A DNA stretch of 63,740 nt, the filler included, from Craspedostauros australis (lineage: Eukaryota): assembly GCA_030167865.1 (NCBI GenBank). It is 11 parts of 11 records of this genome, joined end to end, with 100 filler letters (N's around TTAATTAATTAA, not from the genome) between each part and the next. Parts side by side here need not be neighbours in the genome. Positions count along the whole stretch, not along the records: positions 16,126 to 37,161 come from JALAGF010004231.1; 10 more parts are not named here. The stretch is one strand, 5' to 3'. Of this stretch, positions 2,952 to 42,377 are shown in pieces (positions within the stretch are counted from its first letter, which is position 1; the number at the start of each line of letters is the position of its first letter). The notes beneath the pieces are model-generated. The model was not told the origin of the DNA, did not search any database, and saw only the letters and a program-made list of their open reading frames with translations. Both the position numbers and the translations under genes were made by a program.

Positions 2952-2982
<31 letters not shown>

Positions 2983-5767: not shown

Positions 5768-6255
5768 GACCGCACGACGCAATCACGGCATCATTCACCA
5801 TGGAGTTAAGAAGTAGAGAGCTGCTCGGTCAGGAGATTGAGATGTGAGGATTGCAGTCGGATCAGTGGGCGCAGCAATGGAGAGTGAGAAATTCACTGTA
5901 AAATCACTAACTCTCTCCACAGAGCACTCTGCTCTCCCCAACCAATGCCGTAGCTACTTCCAACAGACATGGGTTTGCGAATCCGTTCTGCGCGGCACAT
6001 CAATGATGAACGCTCTGTGGCGGTTCCTCGTTCCCTCCGCCGCCGACGACGCCGTACTGGTAGTACCATCGTTGTGCTGACATTGTATCGGAACCCGTGG
6101 TTGTATTCGTTTGCAGGACGGAAAGATGATGCCGGTTGCCGCCTGCCGACTTGGATCGAGCTTACGTATCACAGTGCGGGCTTTTGCGATTGGCGAGACA
6201 GCCAGTACCGCCTCACTCATCACAAATGCAGCTGTTACTATTCGTCGTCGTCGTC
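5768..6255. repeat. 3' flank shared with 8849-9326
   Basis: Aligns by eye to 8849-9326 (e.g. AGAAATTCACTGTAAAATCACTAACTCTCTCCACAG in both). Homology ends in a (TCG)n tract. Confidence 0.9.
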
Positions 6256-26814: not shown

Positions 26815-29800
26815 ATGCCAGAGGTTATGGATTCATCCTCTGTGGATGGTTCCGTGGCAAGCGCTCTCCGAAGCTACCACAGCAGCAGCAACGGAAGCAC
26901 CACCACGATCCTATCCTACGAGGACGTCGTCCCCACCGCGAGGGTCACGTCGCTGCGCATGGCGCCTGTCACGAGAGGGACTCGCAATACATCGCCGTCC
27001 ACCACGAGTCGACCCGCAGCAGCAACCAACGACGTTGCACAGCATCCAGCACGCAGATCGCTGCAGGCCAACGCGCATTTGCAAGAAACAGACAACGACG
27101 GCCACGCACGCACGACCATGACGGCGGACTGCGAATGGGCGGATGCCGACATGCAGGATGTGCGGGCCAAGTATCATGCCGCGGCCTTTCCAGAGTATCA
27201 GTATGATGCGCAGCAGCTTCTCTTCCATCGTCAGCAGCTTCAGTTGAGGCAGCAAACTTCGATCGATGAGGAAGATGAAGCTCATGAAGAAGAGAAGCGA
27301 GAATCGATGCATGCGGAAGATGATCATGAGGATGCTGCTGATGGCAGTGACGTTGATGTTGACGTTGACTGCGAGAGTGGTAGTGGCAATGCTAATGGCA
27401 ATGGTAGTGGCAATGGTAGCGGCGATGGCGGTGTTCCACATGCTGCCGCCCAGAAGAACAGCAGCAATGAGAGTAACACAAGCAGCAATCATGGTAGCAG
27501 CAATCATGGTAGCAACACCAGCAACGACAACAGCAACAACTCCGACATTGATGAACGGAGCCTATCCTGCAGCGACGACATAGATGACATCCATGACAAC
27601 GATGGCGATGAAGCAACAATGGCATCCAATCCATTGGCTGAAATACAGCAGCAGGAATCAAGGATGGAGCAGGAGATCAACCGTCTTCTCGTTGGAATGA
27701 ATGCGTTGGGTACAACAACTACCACAGTTTCAACGCATGATATCAACGAGGATCAAGACGGCAACCACGGTCATGGCGACGGTCATGGCGACGGCCACGG
27801 CGGCGATAATGTTTATGATGATGACGGCGGCGGCAATGATTACGATGATCACAACGATGCCAACATCAACCATAGCATCAGAAGCAGAAGCAGCTTTGCT
27901 CCAGCTTCTTCAAGAAACGACGACCATGTCATTCGCAATGAGAACGATATCAACAACGCCGGTGATATCGAAGAAGACGATGAGAGTGACAACATCTACA
28001 GCACGATCCCCGATGCTTCCGACAGCATCTTTGGCTTCAACGTCGATCCCAACATGGATGACACCATGACGGAGGCGGGCATTTCCACCGTGTGCTCGGA
28101 AGAGCAGGCGCGCATCATGAGACAGACCATGGAGGAATCCATGCAGGAGTATCAGCAGCAGTATCAACAACAGTATCCGCAGCAGCAGTTTGGATGGTAC
28201 CAGCAGCAGCAGCAGCAGCAGCATCAATATCCGCAGCACCACCACCAACAACAACAACAACAGCCACATCACCAATATCCGGAAAGAGAGGATACGAATC
28301 AGTCACAGCGGAATGCCTCCGTGCCTGACCGATCCGGTCACGAAAGACAAACGTATTACTCGGATGCTGCTGTGACACCTGCTCTGCAACTCCCAAGGGC
28401 CGTACCTGTCGTTGGCAACATCGACAGTGGCAGCGGCCATGGGGCTCCCATCATGGCAGAGATCACCTACCAGGTGTCCGCGCCAATGGCCTCTCCCAGC
28501 GTGGCGAACAATCTCACATCGTCGAGACGCGCGACTGCATCGTCCATCGAGTCCACCAGCAACCACAGCATGCCGGACCACAATCGCAGAACTCTCGTTC
28601 GGCACCATTCACATCAACAATCCTCGCCACGCCAGCTGCACCAGCGTATCTCTCAGTCGCAAACCCAGGCACAGATGCACGCACAGATCCAACCTCAGCT
28701 GAATCATCCCTACCAGCATCGCGCATCACGAGGTCAGTCCGCGTCCACCATGTCACGACACCGGACTTCGTTGCACGATCGCAGATCCAGCTTTGTCAAC
28801 CGTCGTGGCATGTCCATGCGAGAGTTCCGAAATCATCCAACTATTCGCCATTCCACCAATTCGCTCGACCCGACATCATTGAGAACCGCCTCGCGCACCG
28901 CACTGGGCCTTTCATCTCCACCCTCCATGCTGTCGTCGACAGCCACGACGCCATCATCGAGCGGAGTAGCAGCAACAGCATCGTCATCGATGAATGGGGG
29001 AGCTGGCGCATCGGGTTCGACACAGACGTCCGCCCTGCCCGGTGTGCATGGCTCCTCCGCGCATTCCATGCGCCCGACGTTAACGGATCGCGCGTTCTCG
29101 AGGCGTGCGTTGCGAGAAATCGAGCAATCCTCCGGCACCGTGGTCGACAACCCGCACACGGATGCGATGGAACGACGCAAACGCGTGAGCCGGAATTCGT
29201 CGTCGTCAGGATTCTTCATGAGCAGCTCCAGCAGCGTGGCGACGGGGAGACGATCCCACCCGATGTCACCGAGATCGGCCCCCTCGTCCGCGAGCTACTG
29301 CCCCAGCTCGAGCATGAGCGTCACCAGCGCACCCGTCTTGACATCAACCACACCGCCAGCAGCTGCAGCAGCAGCATCGCCGTCAGGACCAATATCGGTA
29401 TCTGCGTCAATGGTGGCCGCGACAACTCCAACGCACAACATCGTCAGAACGTTCTCGGCAGGGCCTTCGACGTTAGTGGGTGGCTGCCTGGCACCACCTC
29501 CAACATCTCAATCGAACAGTGTCATCAGCGGAATGAGCGCCGCGAACATGCCGTGCTCTTCGTCCAACGCTGGGGATGCTGCTGCTGCAGCTGCAATGAT
29601 GCAGCACGACAGCATCACCAACGTGCACATCACATCTACCGCTGACTCCGTCACCCCCAGCATCGGCATGGCTTCCACTGGCACAGGCGCCAACCCCAAC
29701 GAGACCACCAACCTAGAAGAGGACATCTTGGAGCAAGCGAAGGCGCATCTCACGGAGCAAGAGATTGAGCAGATCCGGATGGCGCTCCAGGAGGCCGATG

Positions 29801-31755
29801 ACGTCTCCACGCCCAACACCCAAGCCGTCGCGAACGCAGCGCCAACAGCTGCATTGGCAACAACAGCGGGGTCCATGGGCACGGAGACCACTTCCACCAG
29901 TCTGACCGCAACGACGATTCCTGTGCAACGTGAGGAGTCGAACAGATCGTTGCTCTCCGAATCATATGCGAGCATCGACGATCTCTACGCAAATCAAGGC
30001 TCTGGGAACTTCCTGTCGGATGGTGAAGCCGCGGCGATCGAGGCCGCTTTGCGCGAAGCAGACGCGGCTGAAGAACAGCAGTCTTTGCTGTTGGCGTTCC
30101 AAATGCAGCAGCAGGAGGTCGTCAACATGCGCGAGCGACAGAGGCTGGGTGCTACGTTCTCCCACAGCCCTCCGCGGCAGCATCCATTGGACATCACCAC
30201 CACGGCAACCTCCACGACGTCATCCACGACGCTTCATCACCATGGTTCATCGCACCAACAGCAGCTGCAGCAATCCACCAGTCACGCACCTCCGCAAGCG
30301 TCACACCCTGGCGCTATCTCTTCCTCATTGCCACCAGCGAGACATCCGTTCGAAGGTCCCACAAATCATAACAGCGCTCCATACAGCCACGACGCTTCTT
30401 CCGCTTTCGCAAGCACGAGATCTATGACCTCGTCACCTGCGACGTACACTCCCGCTGTCGTATCAACCTTCCCAATCGTTGCGTCTCTTGCGCCACCTCC
30501 ATCGTCGTCATCTTCGTCAGTCCGTGCCAGCTCTCGGACGGCAGACCAGCAACAGCAACATGAGCAACAACGAGAGTCGACGGACAAACCCAAGAAGAAT
30601 AAGAAGAAAGAGTCGAAGTCCAAGCGCAAGAAGCTGGGATTTCGTCGCATGATGCGTTCTCGCGATCACAGCTCCAGCAGCAACGGTAGCAACCGGAGCA
30701 GCATCAATGGCAACGGCAGCAATCACAACACCAGCTCCAACAGTAGCACCAGCACCAAAAGCAGCACAAACGCCAACACTAGCAGCAGCGGCAGTGGCAG
30801 CTCAGGCAAGCAACACAGCCATCGAGTAATGGATCCGAACGTTCGTTTACAATTGGGACGAGCAATCCAAAGTGGATTCATTGAGAAGTGCAACCCCACA
30901 TCGATCCAAGGTCAGCATTCCAGCTTGTATCATGCAACGGCGAGCAAGTCAGCTCGAGATGCTGATGGCAATTCGGGTGCATGCGGTGGTGTGGGCGATG
31001 ACAACCAACACCATGATGTTGCCGTCAAGGTGCTCAAGGCCAGATCGACCGAAGACGAGGACAATTTGCTGCTGGATCCGCGGTACAGCGGAAAGATGCT
31101 CCCCTGCAGCAGGCGAGAACGGTTGTATCTGTGGGCCGAGAAGGAGTTTCGCAACCTCGTGCGCGCGAACGATCGCGGCAAAGTGCCGGTGCCAACGCCG
31201 CTGCAATACAAGGAGAACATCCTCTTCACGCGGTTCATGGGCACCGATGCGAATTCGCCCGCACCTCACCTGCATGAAATGAACCATTACCCCAACGGCG
31301 ATCCCATTTGGGATGCGTGGTACACGCAGGTGATGGAATCAATCCGCCGGCTCTACAACGACGCCAACCTCGTGCATGGCGATCTCAGCGAGAATCACAT
31401 CTTGGTGGCGCCTTCCGATCAGGTGGACAACACCATCGGGTGCGGGCATGGCAGCGACAGCGAAGACTTGCAAACCGTCCTGATCGATTTTGGAAATGCC
31501 GTGGATTCACAGCACCCGATGGCGCAGCAGCTGCTCGAGGAGGACCTGTTGCGCATCCAGGCATTCTTCGAAAGCCGTGGAGTGAAAACGTTGAGCGCGG
31601 AAGAGTCACTGGAACTCGTCCAGAGTTCGTTCGACTTTCACCAGGACGGTGATAGTGCCGATGGTGGCAATGGCCTGCGTGATTATCTGCACGGAAGTTT
31701 CCACACGTTGGACTTTGGTTTGGACAGCAAGGACTCGGACAACACAGACGACTGA
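26815..31755 (+). CDS. 1646-aa protein with a C-terminal RIO1/RIO3-family atypical kinase domain
   Basis: VAVKV, WAEKEFRNL, VPVPTP, NILFTRFMG, LVHGDLSE and VLIDFGNAV in ~30830-31620, after a long low-complexity N-terminus. Confidence 0.9.
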   Translation: MPEVMDSSSVDGSVASALRSYHSSSNGSTTTILSYEDVVPTARVTSLRMAPVTRGTRNTSPSTTSRPAAATNDVAQHPARRSLQANAHLQETDNDGHARTTMTADCEWADADMQDVRAKYHAAAFPEYQYDAQQLLFHRQQLQLRQQTSIDEEDEAHEEEKRESMHAEDDHEDAADGSDVDVDVDCESGSGNANGNGSGNGSGDGGVPHAAAQKNSSNESNTSSNHGSSNHGSNTSNDNSNNSDIDERSLSCSDDIDDIHDNDGDEATMASNPLAEIQQQESRMEQEINRLLVGMNALGTTTTTVSTHDINEDQDGNHGHGDGHGDGHGGDNVYDDDGGGNDYDDHNDANINHSIRSRSSFAPASSRNDDHVIRNENDINNAGDIEEDDESDNIYSTIPDASDSIFGFNVDPNMDDTMTEAGISTVCSEEQARIMRQTMEESMQEYQQQYQQQYPQQQFGWYQQQQQQQHQYPQHHHQQQQQQPHHQYPEREDTNQSQRNASVPDRSGHERQTYYSDAAVTPALQLPRAVPVVGNIDSGSGHGAPIMAEITYQVSAPMASPSVANNLTSSRRATASSIESTSNHSMPDHNRRTLVRHHSHQQSSPRQLHQRISQSQTQAQMHAQIQPQLNHPYQHRASRGQSASTMSRHRTSLHDRRSSFVNRRGMSMREFRNHPTIRHSTNSLDPTSLRTASRTALGLSSPPSMLSSTATTPSSSGVAATASSSMNGGAGASGSTQTSALPGVHGSSAHSMRPTLTDRAFSRRALREIEQSSGTVVDNPHTDAMERRKRVSRNSSSSGFFMSSSSSVATGRRSHPMSPRSAPSSASYCPSSSMSVTSAPVLTSTTPPAAAAAASPSGPISVSASMVAATTPTHNIVRTFSAGPSTLVGGCLAPPPTSQSNSVISGMSAANMPCSSSNAGDAAAAAAMMQHDSITNVHITSTADSVTPSIGMASTGTGANPNETTNLEEDILEQAKAHLTEQEIEQIRMALQEADDVSTPNTQAVANAAPTAALATTAGSMGTETTSTSLTATTIPVQREESNRSLLSESYASIDDLYANQGSGNFLSDGEAAAIEAALREADAAEEQQSLLLAFQMQQQEVVNMRERQRLGATFSHSPPRQHPLDITTTATSTTSSTTLHHHGSSHQQQLQQSTSHAPPQASHPGAISSSLPPARHPFEGPTNHNSAPYSHDASSAFASTRSMTSSPATYTPAVVSTFPIVASLAPPPSSSSSSVRASSRTADQQQQHEQQRESTDKPKKNKKKESKSKRKKLGFRRMMRSRDHSSSSNGSNRSSINGNGSNHNTSSNSSTSTKSSTNANTSSSGSGSSGKQHSHRVMDPNVRLQLGRAIQSGFIEKCNPTSIQGQHSSLYHATASKSARDADGNSGACGGVGDDNQHHDVAVKVLKARSTEDEDNLLLDPRYSGKMLPCSRRERLYLWAEKEFRNLVRANDRGKVPVPTPLQYKENILFTRFMGTDANSPAPHLHEMNHYPNGDPIWDAWYTQVMESIRRLYNDANLVHGDLSENHILVAPSDQVDNTIGCGHGSDSEDLQTVLIDFGNAVDSQHPMAQQLLEEDLLRIQAFFESRGVKTLSAEESLELVQSSFDFHQDGDSADGGNGLRDYLHGSFHTLDFGLDSKDSDNTDD

Positions 31756-31959: not shown

Positions 31960-34704
31960 CTATTGTTTGCTCTTGAAGGCTTCCAAATCCAAATCGATTC
32001 CGCGCAACCCCTCGCAGCCTTTCGGAGTGAACCAGACCAGACTGTAGCGCTCCCCTACGAAGGGCATCGTCCAGTGACGTTGCGTCCAGCCGTTGAATTC
32101 GAGGCCCTTGTACCGGATGTCGTGCTTCGCTCCTTCCACGACTAGCTCCCCGCCGCTGTAGGTTCCCAATCCGACGATCAGGCTGGTGGATTGCCCGGCG
32201 CCCGCACCGCTGTCGGTGTGGGGCCGAAATTGGGCGTTGCGGTTGATGGCGATGGTGCTGCTGGGTTCGCGGTTGGGGCGCAGCTTTCGTTCCAGGGCGA
32301 AGGCGGCCTCGACGAGCTCGGGGAACATGGAGTTGGCCTTGGGTTGCTTGTTGATGCCGCCAGGCATGGCGCCGACCGAGAAGCTGCCACTGGCTCCACC
32401 TTGGCCTTGAGCGAAGGAGTATGCGGAGGACCGGGTGTGCTTGTTATGCTTGGCCTTGGAGAATGCCAACGACAGGGAGTCTGTCGATGACACAAGGCGT
32501 TGCGGCTGCGATTGATCGCCATTGCCATTGCTCTCGCCGCTCTTTTCTTCTTGCTGTTGCTGTAGCTGCTGCTGATCGGACACCATGACTAGTTGTCGTT
32601 TGGATGTCGTGGACGGCCATTGGCCGCTCTTGTCGGCCAAGCGCAAGTAATGAAGGACGGCTTCGTACAGTTGAGGGACTGTCGCATCGACATCATCCGC
32701 AGAAGTCGCTTCATTCGTTGGCTCACTAGCAGTGCCATCAGCGGACACGGCCAATTGCTTCGCGATGGTTGCGGTGTCAAGTTTCCATTTACGGTAATCC
32801 TGCAGCTGTTCCTTCGCAGTCTCGGACCATGGTACGAGGACGTCGTCGAACCACTTGCGAACGGAGCAAAGATCGCCGGTGCCGGAGTCCACACCCGATC
32901 GCAACCACCCATCGACGGCACGCTGGTACATGATGGACTGCCATTCCTGAACCCGTTGCAGGATGTGGTCCGAGTTGAAGCCTTTCTCGTACCGATCCGT
33001 GCTACGAGGGTTGAGGATTGCCTTCGCCTTGCCTTCCCAGGATATGTAGTAAGCCTCGGCCGCCATCATGGCATGGTTAGGCGCTGGTGGTGTGGGGATG
33101 AGGTGCGGGTAAGACTCATCGAAGACGCAGTCAACGAAATCGGGATCGATGATGCCGTTCGCCAGCGCGACGAGGACGCCGATGAGACGGCACACCTGAC
33201 CTTCGAGGAAGAGGTCGCCCTTCAACGAAAGCACGAGGAATGGCATGGAACGTGCTGCTGTAGCGGTTGGAAGTTTTGATTCGGCTGGCAGCAACGGATA
33301 GCGCAGCGTGGATCGATGGTAGAGACGGTCCAATCTTCTGTACGCGAGGTAATGGTGCGCCATGACTCGTGGGGTGAAATTGTGGAAGCGCTTGCGTTGC
33401 AGCATCCTGTCGCCACTCGCAACCATGGGTACCTCTTTCTCTGTATCTGCCTTCTCTTCCGATGATTGTGGTGACTCTGGTTTGGATTGCTCATTGTCGT
33501 TGTCGTTGTTGTGGCCATCGTCATTGGCGTCGTGGACTGGCGGATCGTTCTTGTTGCGCTTGGGTTTGCCCTTGAAGCGCTTTGGCTTTTGACGCAACCG
33601 CTTGCGGCTCCGGAGATGGAACTGTTTCTCTGCCACGGCATTCTGATCGTTGATATCAATCTCCACAATCCGCGTCGTGAGCGTCTGCATGATGCGCTTG
33701 AGGACGAGGAAGTACTGTCGGGCGTTGGGATGCGTGAAGGAGCTGTCCGTCTCGTGATTGACGGAGTGCCTGTGATTCTCGACGAATTCCGGTATCGTCT
33801 GTTCCATGCTGTCGTACTCCAATTGCAGATCGGAGCTTGAGGCACGTTGGACGGATTCTCGCAGCATGCAGAGCGGCACGATGTACTCGTTGCGGCGATG
33901 CGACATGTCCATCTCGGCGTTGAATTTGTTGTGCTGCAGCGCGAGGCGCGCCAGCAGACGCAGAGGCGAAAAGTCTGGCAGCGCCTGTGATGTGTCGCGG
34001 AGTGTCGCGCATCGTTTCTTCCAATCGGCTTCCAGGATGGTCTGGGTCTCGTCGACCCAACGTTCGTTGGTCATGGACCCTTGCAGCGGTGCAATCTTGA
34101 CGGCCAAGAGCTCCGTGATGGCGCCCGTGTCCTGATCCTGACGAATGAGGTTGGCATCGCGGTTCAACGTTCCGTACGATCGATTGATCTTGACGCTGTC
34201 CTCCGGAGCAGGAGGCTTCTTCTTGAGAGCGGGTTCCTTGGGATCGTCATTCTTCTCAACAATACTGTCGGTCGTGTTGTTGCCACTGTTGCCCCTGTTA
34301 CCACTGTTGCTGCCAACGGTGTTAACGGTGGTAGCGATGTTAGCGCCCCCCTGTTTGCCTCTGTCATCATCATCATCTCCTCCTTCTTCCTCATCATCAT
34401 GCTTTCGAATCGCACGCAGAAGCAACCTTGCAGCATCATCGCCATCCTTGATGAAGTTCGGAATCGCGATGTAACCAAACAGCAGCACGTTCTTTTGCTT
34501 CGGAGTGGAGGACCTGACGAACTTCTTGAAATCGGCATGATCCTTGGGACTGAGGCAGGCGCCGTCCGTGGAGGTCAGATGCTTGAACAGCTGGCTCTTG
34601 GATGGGAACGTCGCTGCGCAACCGGAGCAGACCGTTGGAGTGGGCGCGTGCTTGCGTTTCGACTTGGTCTGCTTCTTTGCATTGTTGGCATTGTTGGATG
34701 CCAT
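31960..34704 (-). CDS. 914-aa fusion: Zn finger + TruA/PUS1-like pseudouridine synthase domain + C-terminal 2OG-Fe(II) dioxygenase
   Basis: Zn finger CSGCAATFPSKSQLFKHL. PUS-like motifs in order: LLFGY, RQDQDTGA, FNAE...RRNEYIVP, FHNFT, YRRL, LKGDLFLEGQVCRLIG. Dioxygenase motifs: AINRN, PHTD, SLIVGLG.YSGGEL, H.T.PF.GERYSLVWF. Confidence 0.85.
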   Translation of the reverse strand: MASNNANNAKKQTKSKRKHAPTPTVCSGCAATFPSKSQLFKHLTSTDGACLSPKDHADFKKFVRSSTPKQKNVLLFGYIAIPNFIKDGDDAARLLLRAIRKHDDEEEGGDDDDDRGKQGGANIATTVNTVGSNSGNRGNSGNNTTDSIVEKNDDPKEPALKKKPPAPEDSVKINRSYGTLNRDANLIRQDQDTGAITELLAVKIAPLQGSMTNERWVDETQTILEADWKKRCATLRDTSQALPDFSPLRLLARLALQHNKFNAEMDMSHRRNEYIVPLCMLRESVQRASSSDLQLEYDSMEQTIPEFVENHRHSVNHETDSSFTHPNARQYFLVLKRIMQTLTTRIVEIDINDQNAVAEKQFHLRSRKRLRQKPKRFKGKPKRNKNDPPVHDANDDGHNNDNDNEQSKPESPQSSEEKADTEKEVPMVASGDRMLQRKRFHNFTPRVMAHHYLAYRRLDRLYHRSTLRYPLLPAESKLPTATAARSMPFLVLSLKGDLFLEGQVCRLIGVLVALANGIIDPDFVDCVFDESYPHLIPTPPAPNHAMMAAEAYYISWEGKAKAILNPRSTDRYEKGFNSDHILQRVQEWQSIMYQRAVDGWLRSGVDSGTGDLCSVRKWFDDVLVPWSETAKEQLQDYRKWKLDTATIAKQLAVSADGTASEPTNEATSADDVDATVPQLYEAVLHYLRLADKSGQWPSTTSKRQLVMVSDQQQLQQQQEEKSGESNGNGDQSQPQRLVSSTDSLSLAFSKAKHNKHTRSSAYSFAQGQGGASGSFSVGAMPGGINKQPKANSMFPELVEAAFALERKLRPNREPSSTIAINRNAQFRPHTDSGAGAGQSTSLIVGLGTYSGGELVVEGAKHDIRYKGLEFNGWTQRHWTMPFVGERYSLVWFTPKGCEGLRGIDLDLEAFKSKQ

Positions 34705-35248
34705 CGTTTCGAGGTCAACTGTTGCAGAAGTTTTGTGATGGGAAACACTCTGCCTTGTCTGGACTCTGTGGGTGCCCAGATCGCACTTGCACGATGCTTC
34801 TTGCACCTATCTGAGTGGAGAATGAAGATGGGACACCATGTGAGAGACTTGCTTGTTGATTGGAGTGGAGAGTGATGCCGAATCGGTCTTCCTGTTGATG
34901 TCTCTGCGTTTTGTGTTGATGTTGATGTTGAGGTTGATGTTGGGGAATGAATGGTGGCATTGCACTCGTATGAGTCGAAGATACGACCGTTGTTTCAGTC
35001 CCGTGTGTTCGGTTTCAAATCATCGGAGTTGTTGTTCTACAGGCTTCCTTTGGCTTGCGGTTGATGCCATCGTTGCGGTTCTCTTCATTTGCTACCTCGC
35101 ACCTCAAGAGGCTCCACTTGCGCTCAGCTCGAGAGAGACGCATTCATCCATCATCATCATCATCATTGTCATCATCATCATCATTGTCAAAGTACATCGT
35201 CCAGACACTCACTCACGATCCATCAACAAGCGCGCAAACAAGACAACG

Positions 35249-36373
35249 ATGGTGGTCATCATCGATTACAACGATCTGCTGTCGGAGGACAGGAACGAGG
35301 AACTGCTCAATTCGGTCGGCACCGCCGTGGGATCCTCGGACGATGCCATGGGCGTCATCTTCATCCGCAACGTCCCCGGATTCGTCGAGGCCAAGATGAA
35401 GCTGCTGCCGTGCGCCTACAAACTGTCGCAGCTGCCGCAGCAGCAGCTGGAACAGCTCGAGGACCCGCCCAGCTTCTTCAACGCTGGCTGGAGCTACGGC
35501 AAGGAGAAGCTCAAGCCCAACGTGCCGGACACCAACAAGGCGTCATTCTACTTCAATCCGGTCACAGACGTTCCAGGCACGCGGGAGGATCGGGACAAGT
35601 ATCCGGCATCGTATCCCTGCAACAGATGGCCCACGAAGGGGCTGCCGCAGTTGGAGCCGGCCGCCAAACATCTGGGATGCATGCTCAAGGATGTCGCCAT
35701 CCTCCTTTCGAAGCAGATCGATGCTTACGTCGCGGACGAAGTTGAGAAGCAGAATGAGGACGGGGCAAATGGGCAGAAGACGGGGATGAAGAAGCCCCTG
35801 TCGTTGTTCGAGATATTGGATGGCACGGAAAAGGTCAAGGGTCGGTTGCTGTATTACTACCCGCTGCCACCACAACAAGCAGACGAAACGAAGGAGGAAA
35901 CAGCTGCCAGCAACGACTCATGGATCGGATGGCACAACGACTCGGGTTTCCTCACGGCGCTGGCAGGCGACTTGTACTTCGACCCCGCCACCGGCAAGGT
36001 CGTGGACACCAAACCACAGAACACAGGGTTGCAAATCGTCGATCGCTCCGACGCACCGCGCCTCGTCACCATCCCGCCCGATTGCATGGCCGTGCAGATC
36101 GGCGAATGCACGCAGATCCTCACGGGCGGCCTCGTCGTCGCAACTCCCCACAGCGTGCGTGGTGCGCCGGGCATCGCGCGGGCCTCTCTGGCATGTTTCA
36201 TCGACACGCCTCCCGGCTTTCCCCTCACCATGCCCGACGGCGTCACGAGGCAGCAAGTCATCAAGAGTCAGCAATCCAAGCTCGTCCCGCCGCTCGAGCT
36301 GCGGTGGAAGCAGTCGGGCATGACCTTCGGGGACTTCCTTCAAACCACTTTTGAGCATTACTACGATTGGTGA
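35249..36373 (+). CDS. 374-aa IPNS/DIOX-like 2OG-Fe(II) dioxygenase
   Basis: ATG at 35249 (MVVIIDYNDL). Motifs G.IFIRNVPG, GWSYGKEKL, RLLYY, GWHNDSGFLT (HxD), VQIGE...ATPH (distal His) and R.S. Confidence 0.92.
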   Translation: MVVIIDYNDLLSEDRNEELLNSVGTAVGSSDDAMGVIFIRNVPGFVEAKMKLLPCAYKLSQLPQQQLEQLEDPPSFFNAGWSYGKEKLKPNVPDTNKASFYFNPVTDVPGTREDRDKYPASYPCNRWPTKGLPQLEPAAKHLGCMLKDVAILLSKQIDAYVADEVEKQNEDGANGQKTGMKKPLSLFEILDGTEKVKGRLLYYYPLPPQQADETKEETAASNDSWIGWHNDSGFLTALAGDLYFDPATGKVVDTKPQNTGLQIVDRSDAPRLVTIPPDCMAVQIGECTQILTGGLVVATPHSVRGAPGIARASLACFIDTPPGFPLTMPDGVTRQQVIKSQQSKLVPPLELRWKQSGMTFGDFLQTTFEHYYDW

Positions 36374-37261
36374 TGGCGATGGATCGGAGATGATGGCTCA
36401 AATATTAGTGAATTACAGATTTGTTCAACACAGTTCGCGCCACACATATGTACTATTCTTCGTCTCCTGCTTGGATGATAAGGATGTTGATTTGTTGGTC
36501 GCCGTCGCAGTGGATTATGGATGTGCCTTGCACACTCAATTGGGGAGCTCTGGTTATCACAAGGGCATTGCCACTTCACATTCGTGGAGACCGTCCTTTA
36601 ATTTCCTGTCATGGGTTGTTCTGACATGACTCAACACCACATGGATAGAGCAGCTCTGTCACCATCGTTTCGCGAAAGTGTGTTGTATTCTCGTACTATA
36701 TGATATAATACCGACAATCCTCCATGACCAAGTTCGATCGGCGTTGTTGCCATCACTCCTATATGTTGGTCTCTCTGGAGAGAAGTGACTGGAGCCCATG
36801 AACCTCGACTGTGTTGTTGGAAACCGCGGGTTCGGCGAAAAGAGATCTGGGATGATGATGGGAGTGACTTGTTTTCTGGTTCCAGATTTTGGCAACGCAT
36901 CAACAACCAACTCATCTCCTCGCATGTGTGTGCGCGCACCATTCCAACACCCATCTCTCTTCGCCTATTGGCTTTGATCTTGTGTAGTAACTGTTCTAAT
37001 TCCTTTAACAAGGAATTGTCGGGCATCGCCCGACACTTGTTAAAACTATTTTTGACACGGGGAGGATCCCTTTGTGCTTGCACAATATCTCTCCAAGGAT
37101 GGTCCTGGCATTTCACACACCGCCTTGACTGTCCACCACCCCCCATCCAACCTCCCCCCCCNNNNNNNNNNNNNNNNNNNNNNNNNNNNNNNNNNNNNNN
37201 NNNNNTTAATTAATTAANNNNNNNNNNNNNNNNNNNNNNNNNNNNNNNNNNNNNNNNNNNN

Positions 37262-39379
37262 CTTCGCTGCCATCTCCGCAATGACCTCCTTGCCCCTGCG
37301 CTCCCATTCGTTGCGGTTGGCCAACGCGTAGTTCAGATATTCGTCGCTCGAAATGCCGAACACACCGCAATCCTTCAGCTTCTTCGCCAATGGAATGATG
37401 TAATAATCGAAGAACCCGATCTCCCCCTTGTACCAGTTGTCCAGCGGATTCTGCTCTGCGCGACCGGCCAGGTACGATGCGTAGCACTCCTGGAAGAACC
37501 GTTCGTTCCACTTGCGATACACGTGCCAGTGCTGCATGGTGTGGGCGACGTCGGAAGCCTGGATCAAGTGCTCGATCACGATGGTCGCCTTGCGGTTCAC
37601 GCTGTCTCCGAATCGGCTTTCCTCTTCAGCGAGAGACGTGGCACCCTTGAAGGCCTTGTCCCAACGGGCGTTGCGCAACGCCTTCAGATCCTTGTCGGCG
37701 ATATCAGTCGCCATCACGGCGTTCACAACCAGCTGGCGGAAGCGCGTGAGCTCGGCCCCCGTCTCGCAGATGATGGATCGCAATTCATCGTACTCATCCA
37801 GCATCAGCAGATCCCACGCCAACACCAACGAGTTCTGCTCTGCCACACTCCGGTTGTTGTAGACAGAGGCGATGCGGGTGCCCTCCTTGATGAGCTGCGC
37901 ATTTGGAACTCCGCAATGATCAACATCATGGATCAGCGCTGCGAATGCGCATGCGAACTGCGTCAACGGATCTGACGTGATGCCGTAGGTGTGATCATGC
38001 AACGTCGCCACCACTTGGCTCGTTTCGGAACCCTGCGTCTTGTCGAGCAGATCCGATGGGCCCACGATCCGCGAAAGGAGCTTGATGACGGACATGGTCA
38101 CGTGAGAGGCGTGGTCGAAGTTGTGGAATGCGTTGCCTTGGTACATGCTGGCGATCATGCTGACGTAGCTGCGCAACTGCTCGACGACGACTGGCGAAAT
38201 CTTCACCGTTTCAGGATCCTGCTGTCGCAAGGCCACCTTTTTGTCGAATGCTGGCAACCTGATGATCTCCTGCACCTCGTCCAATGGCATGAACTGATCG
38301 TTGGACATTGCTCGGATGATGCCGTTCGAACTAGTTCGACGACTCCCCGACTGCTTCCGATGAGGGACGGTTTGAGCAGCCTCACGTCGCGCGACTATCT
38401 GTTTGATGAGCTGCAGAAGCATTTCGACGTTCCAGCCGACCAACCGCAGTGACCGTGCATCCAGGCCACTCTCAGTGCTCATGGACTGACGGGAATCTGA
38501 TGCATCGTGGCCGCTCTGGTTGGTCGAGTACATTCCTTTGTCGGAGGCACGGTGTCGGGAAGTGATCGGTGGTTGCGCGGGTGCGGACGGGGTGTTGGTG
38601 GATGAGGAATCCGTCTTGTCCTCCATGGCCATACCAGAATCGATCCAGTACCTGATTGTGCATGAGAGCGAGATGAANGTTGAAACAAGGTTTGGTATCA
38701 TGCGAATGAGAAGTGGAGTGAAGAAAAGGACGGCTTGTGGGGGTAAGCAAGGCATCTGGATGTATTGAAATGAATGGCCTCGATCTCAGAGGCAACGAGG
38801 CTGTTCAACATTGGGAGTTCAACATTGGGAATACAAATGTAACTGTACACAGTAGCAACAGTGTTGTGGATGAACGAACGAACGAACGAACTCACGTTTG
38901 CATCTCTCCCTTTCCTTTGGCTTCCACCAGACCTTCACGCTTGATCAGCCAGTGTCCCTTGCCGCAGGTCCTCACAACCTCAGCAGCTTCGGATGACAAA
39001 TGGATGCGGCCAACCGCACCGGTATGTTCGATGCGGGATGCGGTGTTCATGGTGTCGCCGAACAGCTGGAAGCGAGCACGTTCTCCACGCAGGACGCCGG
39101 CGGTGACCGGCCCGGAATGGATACCGATGCGCAGCGACAGGTCCCCTGTGTCCGGGCCCAATGTGATCTCGAGCTGCTTCGTGATGTAATCCATTCGTTG
39201 CAGGATGTCGCGTGCGAATCGCACCATCACGATGGCATGATCCTTCCTGTACTCTGGAATGCCAGACGCGGCGACGTAACAGTCACCAACAGTTTCGACC
39301 TTGAAGACTCGTCGCACGTTGGCCAGTTCATCGAAGGACGAGAACACGGTTTCCAACAGAGTGAACACTTGTGACGGCT
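37262..39379 (-). CDS. Class III cyclase-PDE fusion, partial (exons 39379-38896 and 38651-37262)
   Basis: Cyclase motifs PSQVFTLLE, FKVETVGDCYVA, LRIGIHSGPVTAGVL, RFQLFGDTMNTASR and KGKGEMQT. GT-AG intron 38652-38895 restores EMQTYW and joins in frame to the PDE exon. Confidence 0.93.
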
Positions 39380-39557
39380 CTACATGTTGCAGATGTTGTC
39401 CGAGTAGTTGGAGCGAATTNNNNNNNNNNNNNNNNNNNNNNNNNNNNNNNNNNNNNNNNNNNNTTAATTAATTAANNNNNNNNNNNNNNNNNNNNNNNNN
39501 NNNNNNNNNNNNNNNNNNNCAGCTCGTAGAGCAGCTCATAGAGCAGAGTAGAACATT

Positions 39558-40568
39558 CTACATCATGCTTTGGCTCATCAGTCCGTGGGCACCGACAAAG
39601 TGCGCGTCGGCAGTTTCTCCGGTGGCATTCTTGAGCATCATATTGATGATCATCATGGCTGCCGATGTGATCGTCGTGTTGGTGTTGACGATCGTTTCGT
39701 TGACGATCGTTTCGTTGCCGATTGGCATGTCCATCGTCGTGGATGCTGCCATGCTCATCTGCATCAGCATGCCGCATCCGTACAGCAGCAGGGCGGCAAC
39801 TGCGACAGCACTTCCGACGTAAAGGCGGAAGAGACTGATGATGCCGCGGAAGGCCAGGGTGAAGAGGAAGGAGTTGATCAGGCCCATGAACTGGACGATC
39901 ACCAGGTGCTGCATAGTGAGACATTCGGGGAAGCACATGTCCAGGGTGACTGCCGCCAGCATGGGGATGTTGAAGATCCACGAGTTGCCGTTGCGGAGGT
40001 CGGATGGGATGAACTGCTTCCATGTCATCAGCTGCAGCGAGAAGAGGATGGCTGGGATGGTGGTGTTGAGCTGGATCGCGTTGAGGAACGACATCAATGA
40101 CGGCGAGTCGCCCATGATGTTGCTGGCGGTGGGGAGATCGCCGCATAGACCGCAGTCCTTGAGCAGCAGTCCGATGATGCGGATGGTGGAGTAGTGGAAG
40201 AGGGCGATGGCCAGCTGGAATGCTTCCTTGTGGCACACGACGATCCTGTCTGGTCCCCAGATGACGGTCTTTTTGGGAACCTGCTTCATCAGTGAGTAGG
40301 CGTGTGTGGCGAGTGTCTCGTTGGAGAGCGTGGCGAATGCGACGAGGTATGGGTTGTTTGGGAACACGATGGCGAGCATCGCGGTGAGGAGGCAAGTGGA
40401 GCCAAGGATTCCGTGGAATCCAAACCTCAGCTTTCCGATCTTGAATAGGTAGGCATGCTTTCTGGCTTGGTACTTGCCAGTGGACTTCGGCTTGTGCATG
40501 CTCGTGTTCTTACTGTTTGTGGTGTTTGTGGTGATGTTTGCGCTTGTGGTGGTGAAGAGGTTCATCAT
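39558..40568 (-). CDS. 336-aa multi-pass membrane protein of unknown function (copy 1)
   Basis: ATG at 40568 (MMNLF), several hydrophobic segments and a coding-type codon bias. The upstream ORF extension is not shared with copy 2. Confidence 0.8.
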   Translation of the reverse strand: MMNLFTTTSANITTNTTNSKNTSMHKPKSTGKYQARKHAYLFKIGKLRFGFHGILGSTCLLTAMLAIVFPNNPYLVAFATLSNETLATHAYSLMKQVPKKTVIWGPDRIVVCHKEAFQLAIALFHYSTIRIIGLLLKDCGLCGDLPTASNIMGDSPSLMSFLNAIQLNTTIPAILFSLQLMTWKQFIPSDLRNGNSWIFNIPMLAAVTLDMCFPECLTMQHLVIVQFMGLINSFLFTLAFRGIISLFRLYVGSAVAVAALLLYGCGMLMQMSMAASTTMDMPIGNETIVNETIVNTNTTITSAAMMIINMMLKNATGETADAHFVGAHGLMSQSMM

Positions 40569-41366
40569 TTTGTTGGATTGATTTGGTGTGGTTTGGTTTG
40601 GTTTGTGGTGTTGTGCGATTGACCTTTTGTGGATTTGTGAGTTTGTGAGGAGTGGAGAGGCAACAAAAGTTGTTTCCTCGGCCATCCAGTCTGTGCTCAC
40701 TTTTTGTTTGCACTTTGGGGGAAGAGTGCACAAAAGGATGAGATGGGCATCCCACCTCTGCATACCACACGTTGCAACTTTGTTGTTCGGAGTGCAACAC
40801 GTTGAACCATACCTCGGAGTAACCTTGTTGTCGCGATCTTTTGCGATCTGTCGTGATCTGTCGTGATTTGTCGTTGTACAGCGAGGTTGGACATACACAG
40901 TCCCAGTGCGATGTTGGAAAACTCCGTCGTTGCGCACAGGAAGTGGTCTTCGTTTGTGAATCGCGCACTGCTGTTGTGAGTGTTGTTGATGGCGTCTATT
41001 GTCAGTTGGGGAGTTTGGTTGATGGACGAAGTCCAAACGACACAAAGAGCTCAAGATCGTTGGAGGATTTATTGGACTGGAAAGAAGTGGGCATAGGCAC
41101 TGGAGAACAAGAACATGTCTGTCATATTCGTCATGAAACATCCCAAAAGGCGAAGCCAGAGAAGCACTCACAAGGTTGCGTTTGGATCGACCACGAACAT
41201 GTGAAGACGAACCACCACAAGAAAACTGNNNNNNNNNNNNNNNNNNNNNNNNNNNNNNNNNNNNNNNNNNNNTTAATTAATTAANNNNNNNNNNNNNNNN
41301 NNNNNNNNNNNNNNNNNNNNNNNNNNNNCAGCTCGTAGAGCAGCTCATAGAGCAGAGTAGAACATT

Positions 41367-42377
41367 CTACATCATGCTTTGGCTCATCAGTCCGTGGGCA
41401 CCGACAAAGTGCGCGTCGGCAGTTTCTCCGGTGGCATTCTTGAGCATCATATTGATGATCATCATGGCTGCCGATGTGATCGTCGTGTTGGTGTTGACGA
41501 TCGTTTCGTTGACGATCGTTTCGTTGCCGATTGGCATGTCCATCGTCGTGGATGCTGCCATGCTCATCTGCATCAGCATGCCGCATCCGTACAGCAGCAG
41601 GGCGGCAACTGCGACAGCACTTCCGACGTAAAGGCGGAAGAGACTGATGATGCCGCGGAAGGCCAGGGTGAAGAGGAAGGAGTTGATCAGGCCCATGAAC
41701 TGGACGATCACCAGGTGCTGCATAGTGAGACATTCGGGGAAGCACATGTCCAGGGTGACTGCCGCCAGCATGGGGATGTTGAAGATCCACGAGTTGCCGT
41801 TGCGGAGGTCGGATGGGATGAACTGCTTCCATGTCATCAGCTGCAGCGAGAAGAGGATGGCTGGGATGGTGGTGTTGAGCTGGATCGCGTTGAGGAACGA
41901 CATCAATGACGGCGAGTCGCCCATGATGTTGCTGGCGGTGGGGAGATCGCCGCATAGACCGCAGTCCTTGAGCAGCAGTCCGATGATGCGGATGGTGGAG
42001 TAGTGGAAGAGGGCGATGGCCAGCTGGAATGCTTCCTTGTGGCACACGACGATCCTGTCTGGTCCCCAGATGACGGTCTTTTTGGGAACCTGCTTCATCA
42101 GTGAGTAGGCGTGTGTGGCGAGTGTCTCGTTGGAGAGCGTGGCGAATGCGACGAGGTATGGGTTGTTTGGGAACACGATGGCGAGCATCGCGGTGAGGAG
42201 GCAAGTGGAGCCAAGGATTCCGTGGAATCCAAACCTCAGCTTTCCGATCTTGAATAGGTAGGCATGCTTTCTGGCTTGGTACTTGCCAGTGGACTTCGGC
42301 TTGTGCATGCTCGTGTTCTTACTGTTTGTGGTGTTTGTGGTGATGTTTGCGCTTGTGGTGGTGAAGAGGTTCATCAT
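41367..42377 (-). CDS. 336-aa multi-pass membrane protein of unknown function (copy 2)
   Basis: Same coding sequence as 39558-40568 (offset 1809). Confidence 0.8.
   Translation of the reverse strand: MMNLFTTTSANITTNTTNSKNTSMHKPKSTGKYQARKHAYLFKIGKLRFGFHGILGSTCLLTAMLAIVFPNNPYLVAFATLSNETLATHAYSLMKQVPKKTVIWGPDRIVVCHKEAFQLAIALFHYSTIRIIGLLLKDCGLCGDLPTASNIMGDSPSLMSFLNAIQLNTTIPAILFSLQLMTWKQFIPSDLRNGNSWIFNIPMLAAVTLDMCFPECLTMQHLVIVQFMGLINSFLFTLAFRGIISLFRLYVGSAVAVAALLLYGCGMLMQMSMAASTTMDMPIGNETIVNETIVNTNTTITSAAMMIINMMLKNATGETADAHFVGAHGLMSQSMM

Follow-up and report, generated by a model that had tools for sequence, protein, structure and literature searches.

The window analyzed here, a 63,740-nucleotide stretch of Craspedostauros australis DNA (filler included), contains on its minus strand a complete, apparently single-exon coding sequence (positions 31960 to 34704; 914 amino acids plus a stop codon). 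Its product, designated P0001, combines in one polypeptide a C2HC zinc finger, a Pus1/TruA fold, and a 2OG-Fe(II) dioxygenase, in that order. P0001 is probably a three-part RNA-modification enzyme, in which a Pus1-like module would guide an RNA oxygenase. Both halves come from well-known superfamilies, and their combination defines an uncharacterized, strongly conserved family spanning diatoms, brown algae, chrysophytes, dinoflagellates, and Picozoa, algal groups that dominate marine primary production. No biochemistry for a finger-PUS-dioxygenase fusion was found in the literature searched.

Results

The gene was defined from the ORF list and its translation. The frame is open upstream from a GTG at position 34806, and its earliest ATG is at position 34704 (minus strand). 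The uninterrupted ORF described in the earlier note was recovered as a single 914-codon frame. At an E value of ≤0.001, 259 database proteins matched P0001, and the best 120 of these (E values of 5e-256 to 6e-177) were collinear with it from the zinc finger to the C terminus, as were 36 full-length homologs. The gene is nuclear and apparently devoid of introns, in a diatom-type alga. Named homologs were from Cylindrotheca, Pseudo-nitzschia, Nitzschia, Seminavis, Mayamaea, Epithemia, and Cyclotella cryptica and, beyond diatoms, from the brown alga Ectocarpus, chrysophytes, Chlorochromonas danica, the dinoflagellate Symbiodinium natans, and Picozoa. Automatic pipelines call these proteins plain TruA, which hides the oxygenase.

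The zinc finger (residues 22 to 52; positions 34549 to 34641, minus strand) was delimited by ligand conservation and modeling. An AlphaFold2 model of residues 1 to 690, which covers the finger, the PUS domain, and the hairpin (mean pLDDT, 79.8; pTM, 0.79), predicted a beta-beta-alpha finger with pLDDT values of 93 to 96. In its fold and at three of the four ligand positions the finger follows the C2H2 pattern (C-x2-4-C-x12-H-x3-5-H), and the fourth ligand is a Cys at +8 (C50), the spacing C26-x2-C29-x12-H42-x7-C50 being that of a C2HC rather than a C2H2 finger. The Pfam zf-C2H2 model scored 13.8 bits for a cut-off of 25.2. Among 62 aligned sequences, C26 was present in 59 (with 3 gaps), C29 in 59, H42 in 61, and C50 in all 62; the finger of non-diatom relatives has H...H ligands. 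The zinc finger and the divergent Pus1-type fold form one compact unit; an extended hairpin of helices, together with flexible linkers, joins the dioxygenase to it.

The Pus1/TruA-fold domain, including Pus1-type C-terminal helices, extends from residue 67 to residue 638 (positions 32791 to 34506, minus strand), as delimited by structural alignment, Foldseek, and profile comparison. As modeled, this middle region does adopt the PUS fold proposed in the earlier note, and the predicted fold is specifically Pus1-like. VIA-align matched it to human PUS1 (4iqm) with a Z score of 26.7 (rmsd of 3.3 Å, 299 of 313 residues aligned, 17% identity), the scores of yeast Pus1, PUS3, and E. coli TruA being 25.7, 18.6, and 17.4, respectively. 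Foldseek retrieved PUS1 (4nz6; E value of 8e-10; TM[target] of 0.69), and comparison of the family profile to the PDB sequence set retrieved human PUS1 at an E value of 2.4e-5. Pfam PF01416 scored 15.6 bits on P0001 (E value of 0.023), below the curated cut-off of 23.3 bits; it matched 19 of 37 diatom-clade homologs at an E value of ≤1 (best, 5.4e-5), and non-diatom relatives scored above the cut-off (e.g., 35 to 37 bits). The domain is interrupted by two inserts. The first, a low-complexity acidic/Gly/Asn insert (residues 106 to 170; positions 34195 to 34389, minus strand), is disordered (pLDDT of 40 to 52) and covered by 2 of 36 homologs; it is predicted to be coding, and its DNA is in frame and codon-repeat-like. 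The second, rich in Lys/Arg and acidic residues (residues 373 to 432; positions 33409 to 33588, minus strand), was identified as disordered from pLDDT (<50 over residues 383 to 416) and identity (mean of 13%).

Alignment to TruA placed the catalytic loop at residues 172 to 198 (positions 34111 to 34191, minus strand; NRSYG, containing R175 and Y177, ... RQDQDTGAITE). The divergent RQDQDTGA, in which a retained catalytic Asp had been noted, lies exactly at positions 34120 to 34143 (residues 188 to 195), and its D190 (nucleotides 34135 to 34137, minus strand) is the equivalent of TruA D60. This assignment was obtained via a relative, P0297, whose ASRTDRGLHS pairs with AGRTDAGVHG of E. coli TruA (BLASTP E value of 6e-11, 40% identity over 77 residues) and in which D79 and W105 are 26 residues apart, as are D190 and W216 in P0001; the hhalign path agrees. 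Conservation across diatoms and other algae, proposed in the earlier note as a check, was found for the fusion, which occurs in pennate and centric diatoms and beyond, whereas the Asp is conserved in the diatom clade (D in 57 and E in 5 of 62 sequences) but not outside diatoms, where Glu replaces it in 35 of the 39 sequences with a residue at that position. In the wider family, 173 sequences have a residue in this column (D in 114, E in 45).

The Pus1-like pocket departs from the canonical one. hhalign paired F261, R270/R271, residue 272, and Y274 with TruA F107, R116/R117, Y118, and Y120, respectively, placing the Asn of RRNEY (residues 270 to 274; positions 33883 to 33897, minus strand) at the Y118 position. 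Column 272 contains V (30), I (24), M (4), N (3), and S (1), with no aromatic residue in 62 sequences. The Y177 column of the catalytic loop contains Tyr in 59 and Phe in 3 of the 62. The diatom clade has kept the Asp and lost the pocket Tyr, and non-diatoms mostly show the reverse, with Glu for Asp and the Tyr kept. Either Y177 or the canonical Tyr was present alone in 161 of 170 sequences, both in 3, and neither in 6; this reciprocal pattern tracks clades and so could go back to one event in evolution. The claim that the QIR motif has become QVC was borne out (Q503-V504-C505), and R506 directly follows (QVCR, residues 503 to 506; positions 33187 to 33198, minus strand; hhalign). The basic residue is shifted by one relative to the canonical Q-x-R: TruA R205 aligns to position 505, at which Arg occurs in 6 of 62 sequences, and Arg occupies position 506 in 55 of 62. 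Non-diatom relatives retain GQ[VI]R, and the full canonical set (Asp, aromatic, and Q-x-R Arg) is present in 10 of 170 family members, including P0297. The missing pocket aromatic, the non-diatom Glu, and the appended aldo-keto reductase described below are features beyond those of the earlier note.

For comparison, the part of PMC3973310 drawn on here describes the Asp as essential and as the sole active-site residue shared by all pseudouridine synthases, the stacking residue as Tyr in every family but TruD, and the basic position as Arg or Lys in all families. These residues bear on a reading that we consider rather unlikely, in which P0001 would be an obligatory two-step enzyme acting on one nucleotide, a working PUS domain being coupled to oxidation of the same pseudouridine (or of the uridine first). 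The product would be a new oxidized C-nucleoside in RNA, with a third step where a reductase is fused. An acidic catalytic residue nearly everywhere, the 10 canonical sets (with RTDRGLHS as the P0297 loop), and a Y177 that appears where the canonical Tyr is lost, which fits a functional uracil pocket, all point in this direction; moreover, fusions of consecutive enzymes are common in tRNA modification, e.g., the TYW fusions, according to the portion of PMC2938197 used here. However, in the diatom clade, position 272 is uniformly non-aromatic and the Asp is occasionally Glu, and outside diatoms Glu prevails, although the Asp is called universal and essential (PMC3973310, same part). In addition, one base cannot occupy the PUS and oxygenase pockets simultaneously. 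Finally, we know of no oxidized pseudouridine in RNA, which also counts against a two-step reaction on one nucleotide.

The dioxygenase is the most constrained part of the protein, with a mean identity in the family alignment of 82% for its core versus 36 to 60% for the PUS segments. The module (residues 676 to 914; positions 31963 to 32679, minus strand) consists of the N-terminal helix VPQLYEAVLHYLRLADKSGQWPSTT, a disordered linker, and a DSBH core. In a model of residues 555 to 914 (pLDDT of 85 to 97 for the DSBH part), the C-terminal ~240 residues are predicted to form a double-stranded beta-helix. The core is preceded by the Gly-rich GGASGSFSVG (residues 769 to 778; positions 32371 to 32400, minus strand), whose columns G769 to G778 are invariant and which is predicted to be a strand (model residues 218 to 224; pLDDT of ~89). 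Conservation identified the HxD iron ligands as H829-T-D831, at precisely the location reported earlier (positions 32212 to 32220, minus strand), and the distal His and RYS also reported as H877 and the putative 2OG-binding R886-Y-S888 (positions 32041 to 32076, minus strand), the Arg of RxS motifs being the residue that binds the 2OG C5 carboxylate. H829, D831, H877, and R886 are each present in 62 of 62 sequences and S888 in 60; in the wider family, HxD and the distal His are present in 215 of 215 members and the Arg in 213. The invariant HxD...H...RxS and DSBH matches with Z scores of 10 to 12 uphold the identification of this domain as a 2OG-Fe(II) dioxygenase.

A wide VIA-align search gave 38 chains with Z scores of ≥8, and the 50 rows listed were nearly all 2OG or other non-heme-iron oxygenases. 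Z scores were 11.8 for NgTET1, 11.5 for FTO, 11.1 for AlkB, and 10.6 for PHD 6f0w, the alignments spanning residues ~665 to 906 (model residues 111 to 352); AlkB, FTO, and ALKBH5 were neighbors at 10.5 to 11.5. The nearest Foldseek match in the PDB was CcTet (7vpn; E value of 7.7e-6), and phage JBP1/TET proteins came first in the viral library BFVD (E values of 3 to 4e-7). The Z scores of TET, FTO, AlkB, and prolyl hydroxylases all lie within about 1.5, a near-tie because of which no nucleic-acid-specific family is assignable to the dioxygenase. The oxygenase does not resemble the AlkB subfamily in sequence: the AlkB motif R-x5-R places another Arg at +6 from the one that binds 2OG, and the corresponding position 892, six after R886, is an invariant Phe. 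In the Pfam search, no model recognized the dioxygenase domain of P0001, including Tet_JBP (PF12851), which matched 5 of 29 family members, all below threshold (best E value, 0.018). 2OG-FeII_Oxy_3 matched 2 of 29, also below threshold, with the lowest Pfam E value (0.0077), and 2OG-FeII_Oxy_2 matched neither P0001 nor the family members searched.

OGFOD1/Tpa1 and the bacterial EF-Tu prolyl hydroxylase are hydroxylases of the translation machinery. P0001 could similarly hydroxylate a ribosomal protein or translation factor, its catalytically altered Pus1-like domain and its finger only docking tRNA or rRNA. This is improbable, although PHD 6f0w (see above), P. putida P4H-EF-Tu (4iw3; Z score of 10.1), and PHD2 (9.9) are among the structural matches, the lowest sub-threshold Pfam value is that of 2OG-FeII_Oxy_3, and the nearest named ESM-Atlas cluster has PF13640. 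Weighing against it, if not decisively, are the first rank of TET/JBP proteins in two Foldseek libraries, Tet_JBP as the commoner weak Pfam match, and fusion partners that are nucleic-acid binders or modifiers. The same rank might suggest a TET/JBP-like oxygenase of DNA bases acting on thymine or 5-methylcytosine, with the finger binding DNA, since the top neighbors (CcTet, NgTET1, and phage JBP1/TET) are DNA enzymes and the domain is found in dinoflagellates, which are rich in 5hmU (PMC11572971). We consider this highly improbable: in PMC11572971, the dinoflagellate 5hmU enzymes are separate TET/JBP homologs, and neither pseudouridine nor diatoms occur in that paper. Furthermore, the domain is closely coupled to a fold specific to RNA, the protein has one finger only, and the Tet_JBP profile matches are sub-threshold.

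A search with the oxygenase domain returned 1903 cluster representatives at an E value of ≤0.001. Among 122 newly found representatives, PF01416 was present in 37, an aldo-keto reductase downstream of the oxygenase in 14, and a fused FkbM-type methyltransferase in 2. The reductase, of the generic DkgA/YvgN/prostaglandin-F-synthase type, was found in dinoflagellates, Picozoa, and other lineages. The same dioxygenase is also fused in relatives to R3H, RanBP2-type zinc ribbons, C2H2 fingers, and ankyrin. The R3H, RanBP2, C2H2, and PUS partners, the frequency of PF01416, and the proximity to TET/JBP by Foldseek (PDB and viral library) each hint at a nucleic-acid substrate. To our knowledge, the aldo-keto reductase fusion has no precedent in RNA modification, and its frequency could point instead to small-molecule chemistry. 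The PUS-like and oxygenase domains (plus the reductase in some lineages) would then convert free uridine or pseudouridine phosphate into a C-nucleoside or nucleotide metabolite. The methyltransferase fusions and structural matches to the nucleoside-antibiotic oxygenases PolD, PasI, and 7v4p (Z scores of 7.9 to 8.8) would fit such a pathway, to which we nevertheless assign very little probability: Pus1-type enzymes act on polynucleotides, the R3H, RanBP2, and C2H2 finger modules bind polymers, and contact with RNA would suit the basic disordered inserts.

Discussion

In the preferred reading, in which a Pus1-like module guides the RNA oxygenase, the finger/PUS unit would recognize a structured RNA, with tRNA or some other substrate of Pus1 type as the likeliest candidates, and would hold a flipped uridine or a neighboring nucleotide. 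The hairpin and linkers would tether the dioxygenase to the RNA-bound module, and the dioxygenase would hydroxylate, or oxidize in some other way, a base of the bound RNA, modified or not, in an arrangement that resembles ALKBH8. Counting against this reading are the near-tie among dioxygenase families with their sub-threshold Pfam matches, the H-x8-R-Y-S spacing, which may resemble that of prolyl hydroxylases, the PF01416 score of P0001 below the cut-off, the frequent aldo-keto reductase fusion, and the clade-bound pattern of the Tyr. A pure recognition or base-flipping role for the Pus1-like domain appears somewhat more plausible than retention of pseudouridine synthase activity, which we place a little below an even chance because in the diatom clade the Tyr gives way to an aliphatic residue or Asn, the Arg lies one position further on, and a new Tyr (Y177) is present. 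The earlier note offered two functions, an oxidized pseudouridine or uridine product and a PUS fold that serves as a targeting module; both are plausible, and the sequence leans toward targeting or altered chemistry over a textbook pseudouridine synthase.

A bolder proposal, which we hold only tentatively and regard as unlikely, is that proteins of the algal family work as assembly lines that install an as yet undescribed nucleoside in RNA. The remodeled Pus1 pocket, which in diatoms has Asp but lacks the Tyr and in other groups combines Glu and Tyr, would flip and possibly isomerize a uridine; the tethered dioxygenase would oxidize that residue or its neighbor; and the fused aldo-keto reductase of dinoflagellates, Picozoa, and others would perform a third, reductive step. 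If true, the main marine phytoplankton groups would possess a novel class of RNA hypermodification enzyme that works in several steps.

The PUS pocket breaks rules that hold for all characterized pseudouridine synthases, and the strongly constrained oxygenase has no Pfam model. Together, these features predict a novel RNA modification and, less likely, modification of DNA, protein, or a metabolite. They single out D190, Y177, and H829/D831.

P0001 shares with eukaryotic Pus1 (human 4iqm/4nz6 and yeast 7r9f; TruA family) a fold common to nearly the whole catalytic domain, C-terminal helices included, the motifs IRILG..FNAE..RRxEYLLP, FHNFT, and GDxFLxGQ..R..G, and an Asp at the catalytic position. 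Unlike Pus1, P0001 has a replaced Tyr, an Arg shifted by one, and a Gly for the His of GVHA, in addition to its two long disordered inserts, N-terminal zinc finger, and C-terminal dioxygenase. With TET/JBP enzymes (CcTet 7vpn, NgTET1 5cg8, and phage JBP1/TET), it shares HxD...H...R and the GG before the following strand. These enzymes are the nearest by Foldseek and include the top VIA-align match, NgTET1, with a Z margin of about 1 or less over AlkB/FTO/PHD and an rmsd of 7.5 Å, but the partner domain of P0001 is RNA-specific and the Tet_JBP matches in family members are sub-threshold only. Iyer, Tahiliani, Rao, and Aravind reportedly described, in Cell Cycle in 2009, an algal family of 2OG-Fe(II) dioxygenases of very varied domain architecture, for which a role in RNA modification was predicted; the partners found here (PUS, aldo-keto reductase, FkbM methyltransferase, R3H, RanBP2, and ankyrin) fit this account of what may be the same family. 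ALKBH8 (3thp; Z score of 8.1 against the P0001 C-domain by VIA-align) could be the best functional analogy for the working of P0001. In ALKBH8, too, a single polypeptide carries a 2OG oxygenase, of the AlkB type, along with a further domain that acts on tRNA and an RRM that binds RNA, although this further domain is a methyltransferase in ALKBH8 and a PUS fold in P0001.

Open reading frame and genomic context

Positions 31960 to 34704 on the minus strand form a single open frame of 914 codons, the product of which (the window protein, to which all residue numbers refer) comprises a zinc finger, a Pus1-like pseudouridine synthase (PUS) domain and a 2OG-Fe(II) dioxygenase. Translation showed that the coordinates proposed in the earlier note were all exact: RQDQDTGA occupies residues 188 to 195 (nt 34120 to 34143), the HxD motif consists of H829 and D831 (nt 32212 to 32220) and is followed by H877 and R886-Y-S888, and Q503-V504-C505 lies at the place of the Pus1 Q-I-R motif, in agreement with the claimed replacement of QIR by QVC. 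A word-indexed search retrieved 259 relatives at E ≤ 0.001, indicating that the window protein is real. The best 120 of these 259 relatives had E values of 5e-256 to 6e-177; none of the 120 carried a precomputed Pfam domain, and all those named by organism were diatoms. Pennate relatives came from Cylindrotheca, Pseudo-nitzschia, Nitzschia, Seminavis, Mayamaea and Epithemia, and a centric one from Cyclotella cryptica. The top identity of any homologue to the window protein was only ~50%. Alignment of 37 full-length sequences established that the architecture is collinear from the N-terminal finger through the final oxygenase strand. The AlphaFold2 model and the homologue alignment revealed two disordered, poorly conserved segments, at residues 106 to 170 (acidic/Gly/Asn-rich) and 373 to 432 (Lys/Arg- and acid-rich). 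The first of these is present in just 2/36 homologues, and its DNA looks like codon-repeat coding sequence. It is only the collinearity that argues for the single-exon model and for an in-frame insert at residues 106 to 170.

The region is eukaryotic and nuclear, as judged by its composition and the surrounding genes. Pfam analysis identified a RIO kinase, another 2OG oxygenase, phosphodiesterases, and PAS and AAA proteins as neighbors, and this gene context is uninformative for the function of the window protein. The neighboring 2OG-Fe(II) oxygenase (34853 to 36373, plus strand; PF03171, E = 1.7e-5, 25.5 bits versus a cut-off of 23) is unrelated. Since its gene is divergent, with an ORF start ~150 to 540 bp upstream of the ATG of the fusion gene, the two genes may share one promoter region. 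A convergent ORF of 1646 codons at 26815 to 31755 (plus strand), its end lying 205 bp away from the fusion gene's stop codon, encodes a C-terminal RIO1 kinase domain (E = 8e-30) and an N-terminus that is very long and of low complexity, with runs of Ser/Thr/Gln/Asn. Two 3'5'-cyclic nucleotide phosphodiesterase genes (PF00233), at 16171 to 17592 (plus strand) and 37217 to 38755 (minus strand), match the same profile range with 106.1 and 105.8 bits, respectively, and look like paralogues located ~20 kb apart in opposite orientations. On the minus strand between 39472 and 42656, two pairs of ORFs, one of equal length (39472 to 40395 and 41281 to 42204; 307 aa each) and one unequal (39558 to 41171, 537 aa, and 41367 to 42656, 429 aa), both display an offset of 1809 bp, which suggests a tandem duplication; the two longer ORFs had no Pfam match at E ≤ 1e-5. 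Three 259-aa ORFs within positions 1 to 8105 (1170 to 1949, minus strand; 4988 to 5767 and 7326 to 8105, plus strand) may represent a repeated element. The GC skew of the first 4 kb of the window is unusually strong (+0.37).

Pus1-type fold of the middle region

Sequence methods were marginal for the PUS domain when the window protein was used alone, with a PF01416 score of 15.6 bits, below the cut-off of 23.3. PF01416 matches at E ≤ 1 were obtained for 19/37 homologues, and the family profile retrieved human PUS1 among PDB sequences (E = 2.4e-5), the match running through IRILG..FNAE..RRxEYLLP and FHNFT..GDxFLxGQ. An AlphaFold2 model of residues 1 to 690, built from a 62-sequence alignment (mean pLDDT, 79.8; pTM, 0.79), matched human Pus1 both by Foldseek (E = 8e-10; TM on target, 0.69 to 0.71) and by VIA-align (Z = 26.7; rmsd, 3.3 Å; 299/313 residues). 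VIA-align also matched yeast Pus1 (Z = 25.7), PUS3 (Z = 18.6), E. coli TruA (Z = 17.4) and PUS10 (Z = 9.7). Since the Pus1-aligned range of the model extends from residue 67 to 638 and includes the Pus1-type C-terminal helices, the middle region does adopt the PUS fold supposed for it, contrary to the refuting outcome named in the earlier note (no PUS fold).

Catalytic aspartate and altered pocket

Two candidates were considered for the position of the catalytic Asp, namely, Y177 in the invariant NRSYG (compared to GRTDxG) and D190 in QDxxTGA (compared to RTDxGVHA). Comparison of the family with the single E. coli TruA sequence by hhalign was uninformative (probability of 4%). A locus search with TruA gave only relatives of at least 82% identity, and a phylum-wide family search was used instead, affording a 31-sequence alignment of E. 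coli TruA and 30 proteobacterial TruA genes. With this alignment, hhalign matched the C-terminal half of the PUS domain with 42% probability, pairing F261 with TruA F107, E264 with R110, R270/R271 with R116/R117, position 272 with Y118, Y274 with Y120, and position 505 with R205. The path through the N-terminal half placed D190 on TruA D60 with low confidence. Intermediate relatives, retrieved with the oxygenase-only profile, bridge the family to TruA. The catalytic loops of many non-diatom fusion proteins, such as GTEPTCHSLCDT or GLERTCHALADT, carry the GVHA histidine of TruA at +4 from the acid, and the loop of one database relative, P0297, is fully canonical (ASRTDRGLHSLGNVV). The window protein and P0297 matched each other across the oxygenase and the C-terminal half of the PUS domain (31% identity over 485 residues; E = 2e-58), and the N-terminal half of P0297 matched E. 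coli TruA (40% identity over 77 residues; E = 6e-11). The Asp of P0297 is found in the D190 column of the multiple alignment, and in both proteins this residue lies 26 positions from the Trp conserved in the next helix. Thus, the loop of P0297, the alignment column and the equal spacing identify D190 as the equivalent of the catalytic Asp, as had been supposed. The alternative that NRSYG (Y177) is a remnant of GRTDxG that has lost its Asp was rejected in view of P0297 and of the E-x3-H loops, with their His kept, in the non-diatom proteins.

According to PMC3973310, Asp is essential and is the sole active-site residue universal in pseudouridine synthases, a uracil-stacking Tyr that may act as a general base is present in every family except TruD, and an Arg or Lys occupies a conserved basic position in every family. 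The pocket is altered with respect to these residues in the 62 diatom-clade sequences. Position 190 is D in 57 and E in 5, whereas the Tyr position, 272, is never aromatic (V in 30, I in 24, M in 4, N in 3, S in 1). Arg is present at the canonical position, 505, in 6/62 sequences and at position 506 in 55/62, and the catalytic loop contains a new Tyr at position 177 (Y in 59, F in 3). Among 215 family members of at least 450 residues aligned to the family HMM, 170 had residues at positions 177, 190 and 272. An aromatic residue was present at 177 and not 272 in 110/170, at 272 and not 177 in 51/170, at both in 3/170 and at neither in 6/170; the full canonical set (Asp, aromatic 272 and R505) was found in 10/170. 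A further set comprised 45 proteins related to a chrysophyte member, three of them from Ectocarpus. Of the 39 in which position 190 is occupied, 35 have Glu at this site, and position 272 is aromatic (Tyr, Phe or Trp) in 34. The reciprocal 177/272 pattern may reflect one or few evolutionary events, since it tracks clades, and is not statistical proof of compensation.

Our reading of these alignments is that the ancestral fusion contained a near-canonical Pus1 domain and that each large clade has since changed one of the two key catalytic residues, but has retained an acidic, an aromatic and an arginine side chain somewhere in or near the pocket. This retention fits a pocket that still grips uridine, and pseudouridine formation does not follow from it. 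That a single uridine must undergo both steps in turn is in our view unlikely, and we consider it probable that the window protein is an RNA oxygenase guided by a PUS-like module.

C-terminal oxygenase

The model of residues 555 to 914 had a mean pLDDT of 78.2, with values of 85 to 97 for the β-helix core. The ten best Foldseek matches in the PDB were all CcTet (from E = 7.7e-6 up), followed by ABH2, AlkB, a P4H, CMD1 and NgTET1. Against viral models, the best named matches were phage JBP1/TET oxygenase proteins (E = 3 to 4e-7). VIA-align, used as an independent method on 48,161 chains, retrieved NgTET1 (Z = 11.8; rmsd, 7.5 Å), FTO (11.5), AlkB (11.1), a PHD (10.6), ALKBH5 (10.5), CcTet (10.1) and the Pseudomonas putida P4H (10.1). 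The domain is a genuine double-stranded β-helix 2OG oxygenase, the subfamily assignment of which is split among TET, FTO, AlkB and PHD matches. The structural match starts near residues 665 to 675, and the conserved helix VPxxYxxVLxxLRxADxSGxWPSTT is therefore part of the oxygenase module. A protein hydroxylase, which the PHD and P4H matches would suit, appears improbable to us. The TET and JBP1 matches bring in a DNA oxygenase, which we regard as very unlikely for a protein with a Pus1-type domain; an RNA oxygenase remains our preferred reading.

The oxygenase domain had no match in Pfam, NCBIfam or PDB-sequence searches, and the family profile retrieved no oxygenase from PDB sequences at E ≤ 10. 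Sub-threshold matches to Tet_JBP and 2OG-FeII_Oxy_3 were obtained for 5/29 and 2/29 diverse family members, respectively. The ESM Atlas gave only unnamed viral clusters (score of 0.96, recognition below the reliability mark), which were taken as a lead. The Fe/2OG site is intact: H829, D831, H877 and R886 are conserved in 62/62 diatom-clade sequences and in 213 to 215 of the 215 members of the wider family. Mean identity to the window protein was 82% for the oxygenase core versus 36 to 60% for PUS segments. Judging from this very strong conservation, we regard activity of the oxygenase as almost certain, and it is the part of the protein under the strongest selection.

Wider family and fusion partners

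The oxygenase-only profile retrieved 1903 cluster representatives at E ≤ 0.001, including 356 at E ≤ 1e-30. From the best 150 of the 1903, the 122 representatives not already collected were scanned for domains, revealing PF01416 (PUS) in 37/122 (27 of 61 at E ≤ 1e-3 and 10 of 61 at E ≤ 1e-4), an aldo-keto reductase (AKR), always C-terminal to the oxygenase, in 14/122, an FkbM-type methyltransferase, a RanBP2-type zinc ribbon and a C2H2 finger in 2/122 each, and R3H and ankyrin repeats in 1/122 each. The phyletic breadth of the family extends to Chlorochromonas (Ochromonas) danica, Ectocarpus species, Symbiodinium natans (finger, PUS, oxygenase and AKR in 914 aa) and Picozoa (1235 aa). Many short "stand-alone" oxygenase matches are probably exon or contig fragments. 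Pipeline names of the fusion relatives are "tRNA U38,U39,U40 pseudouridine synthase TruA" or "hypothetical protein," and the oxygenase half is without annotation in every public record of relatives examined.

An AKR follows the dioxygenase in one polypeptide in the relatives P0273, P0302 and P0449 to P0451 and in 12 others, a set that comprises the dinoflagellate Symbiodinium natans, Picozoa and many unnamed relatives. Metagenomic gene calls can join neighboring genes; the AKR fusion was seen repeatedly in independent sources, one being an NCBI genome protein. Participation in a small-molecule pathway, which the fused reductase might bring to mind, is in our view very unlikely. The AKR is of the generic DkgA/YvgN/prostaglandin-F-synthase type, which indicates no substrate. 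The diatom fusion proteins, including the window protein, are devoid of this domain, and no AKR gene was detected among the 15 window ORFs of at least 310 aa away from the fusion gene.

Proposed function and comparison with known systems

The substrates of Pus1 enzymes are tRNA, snRNA and mRNA stem-loops. Because of these substrates, because the other domains fused to the oxygenase bind nucleic acids and because the nearest structures are nucleic-acid oxygenases, we propose that the finger and the Pus1-like unit would bind structured RNA and that the tethered oxygenase would oxidize a base in the bound RNA. Iyer et al. reportedly predicted, in Cell Cycle in 2009, an algal family of RNA-modifying 2OG dioxygenases with diverse architectures, which we take to be probably the family of the window protein. 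In our search of the full-text literature, no paper dealing with a PUS-dioxygenase fusion was retrieved; the supplements of PMC2938197 might list such architectures, and a paper about the 5hmU enzymes of dinoflagellates (PMC11572971) makes no mention of one.

By its modeled structure, the window protein is a member of the Pus1/TruA fold, although it departs from this group in two sequence-level features, scoring below the Pfam cut-off and lacking the active-site Tyr. In its mode of action, it may by analogy resemble ALKBH8, in which an oxygenase is joined to a second tRNA-modifying domain, even though its own oxygenase is not an AlkB.
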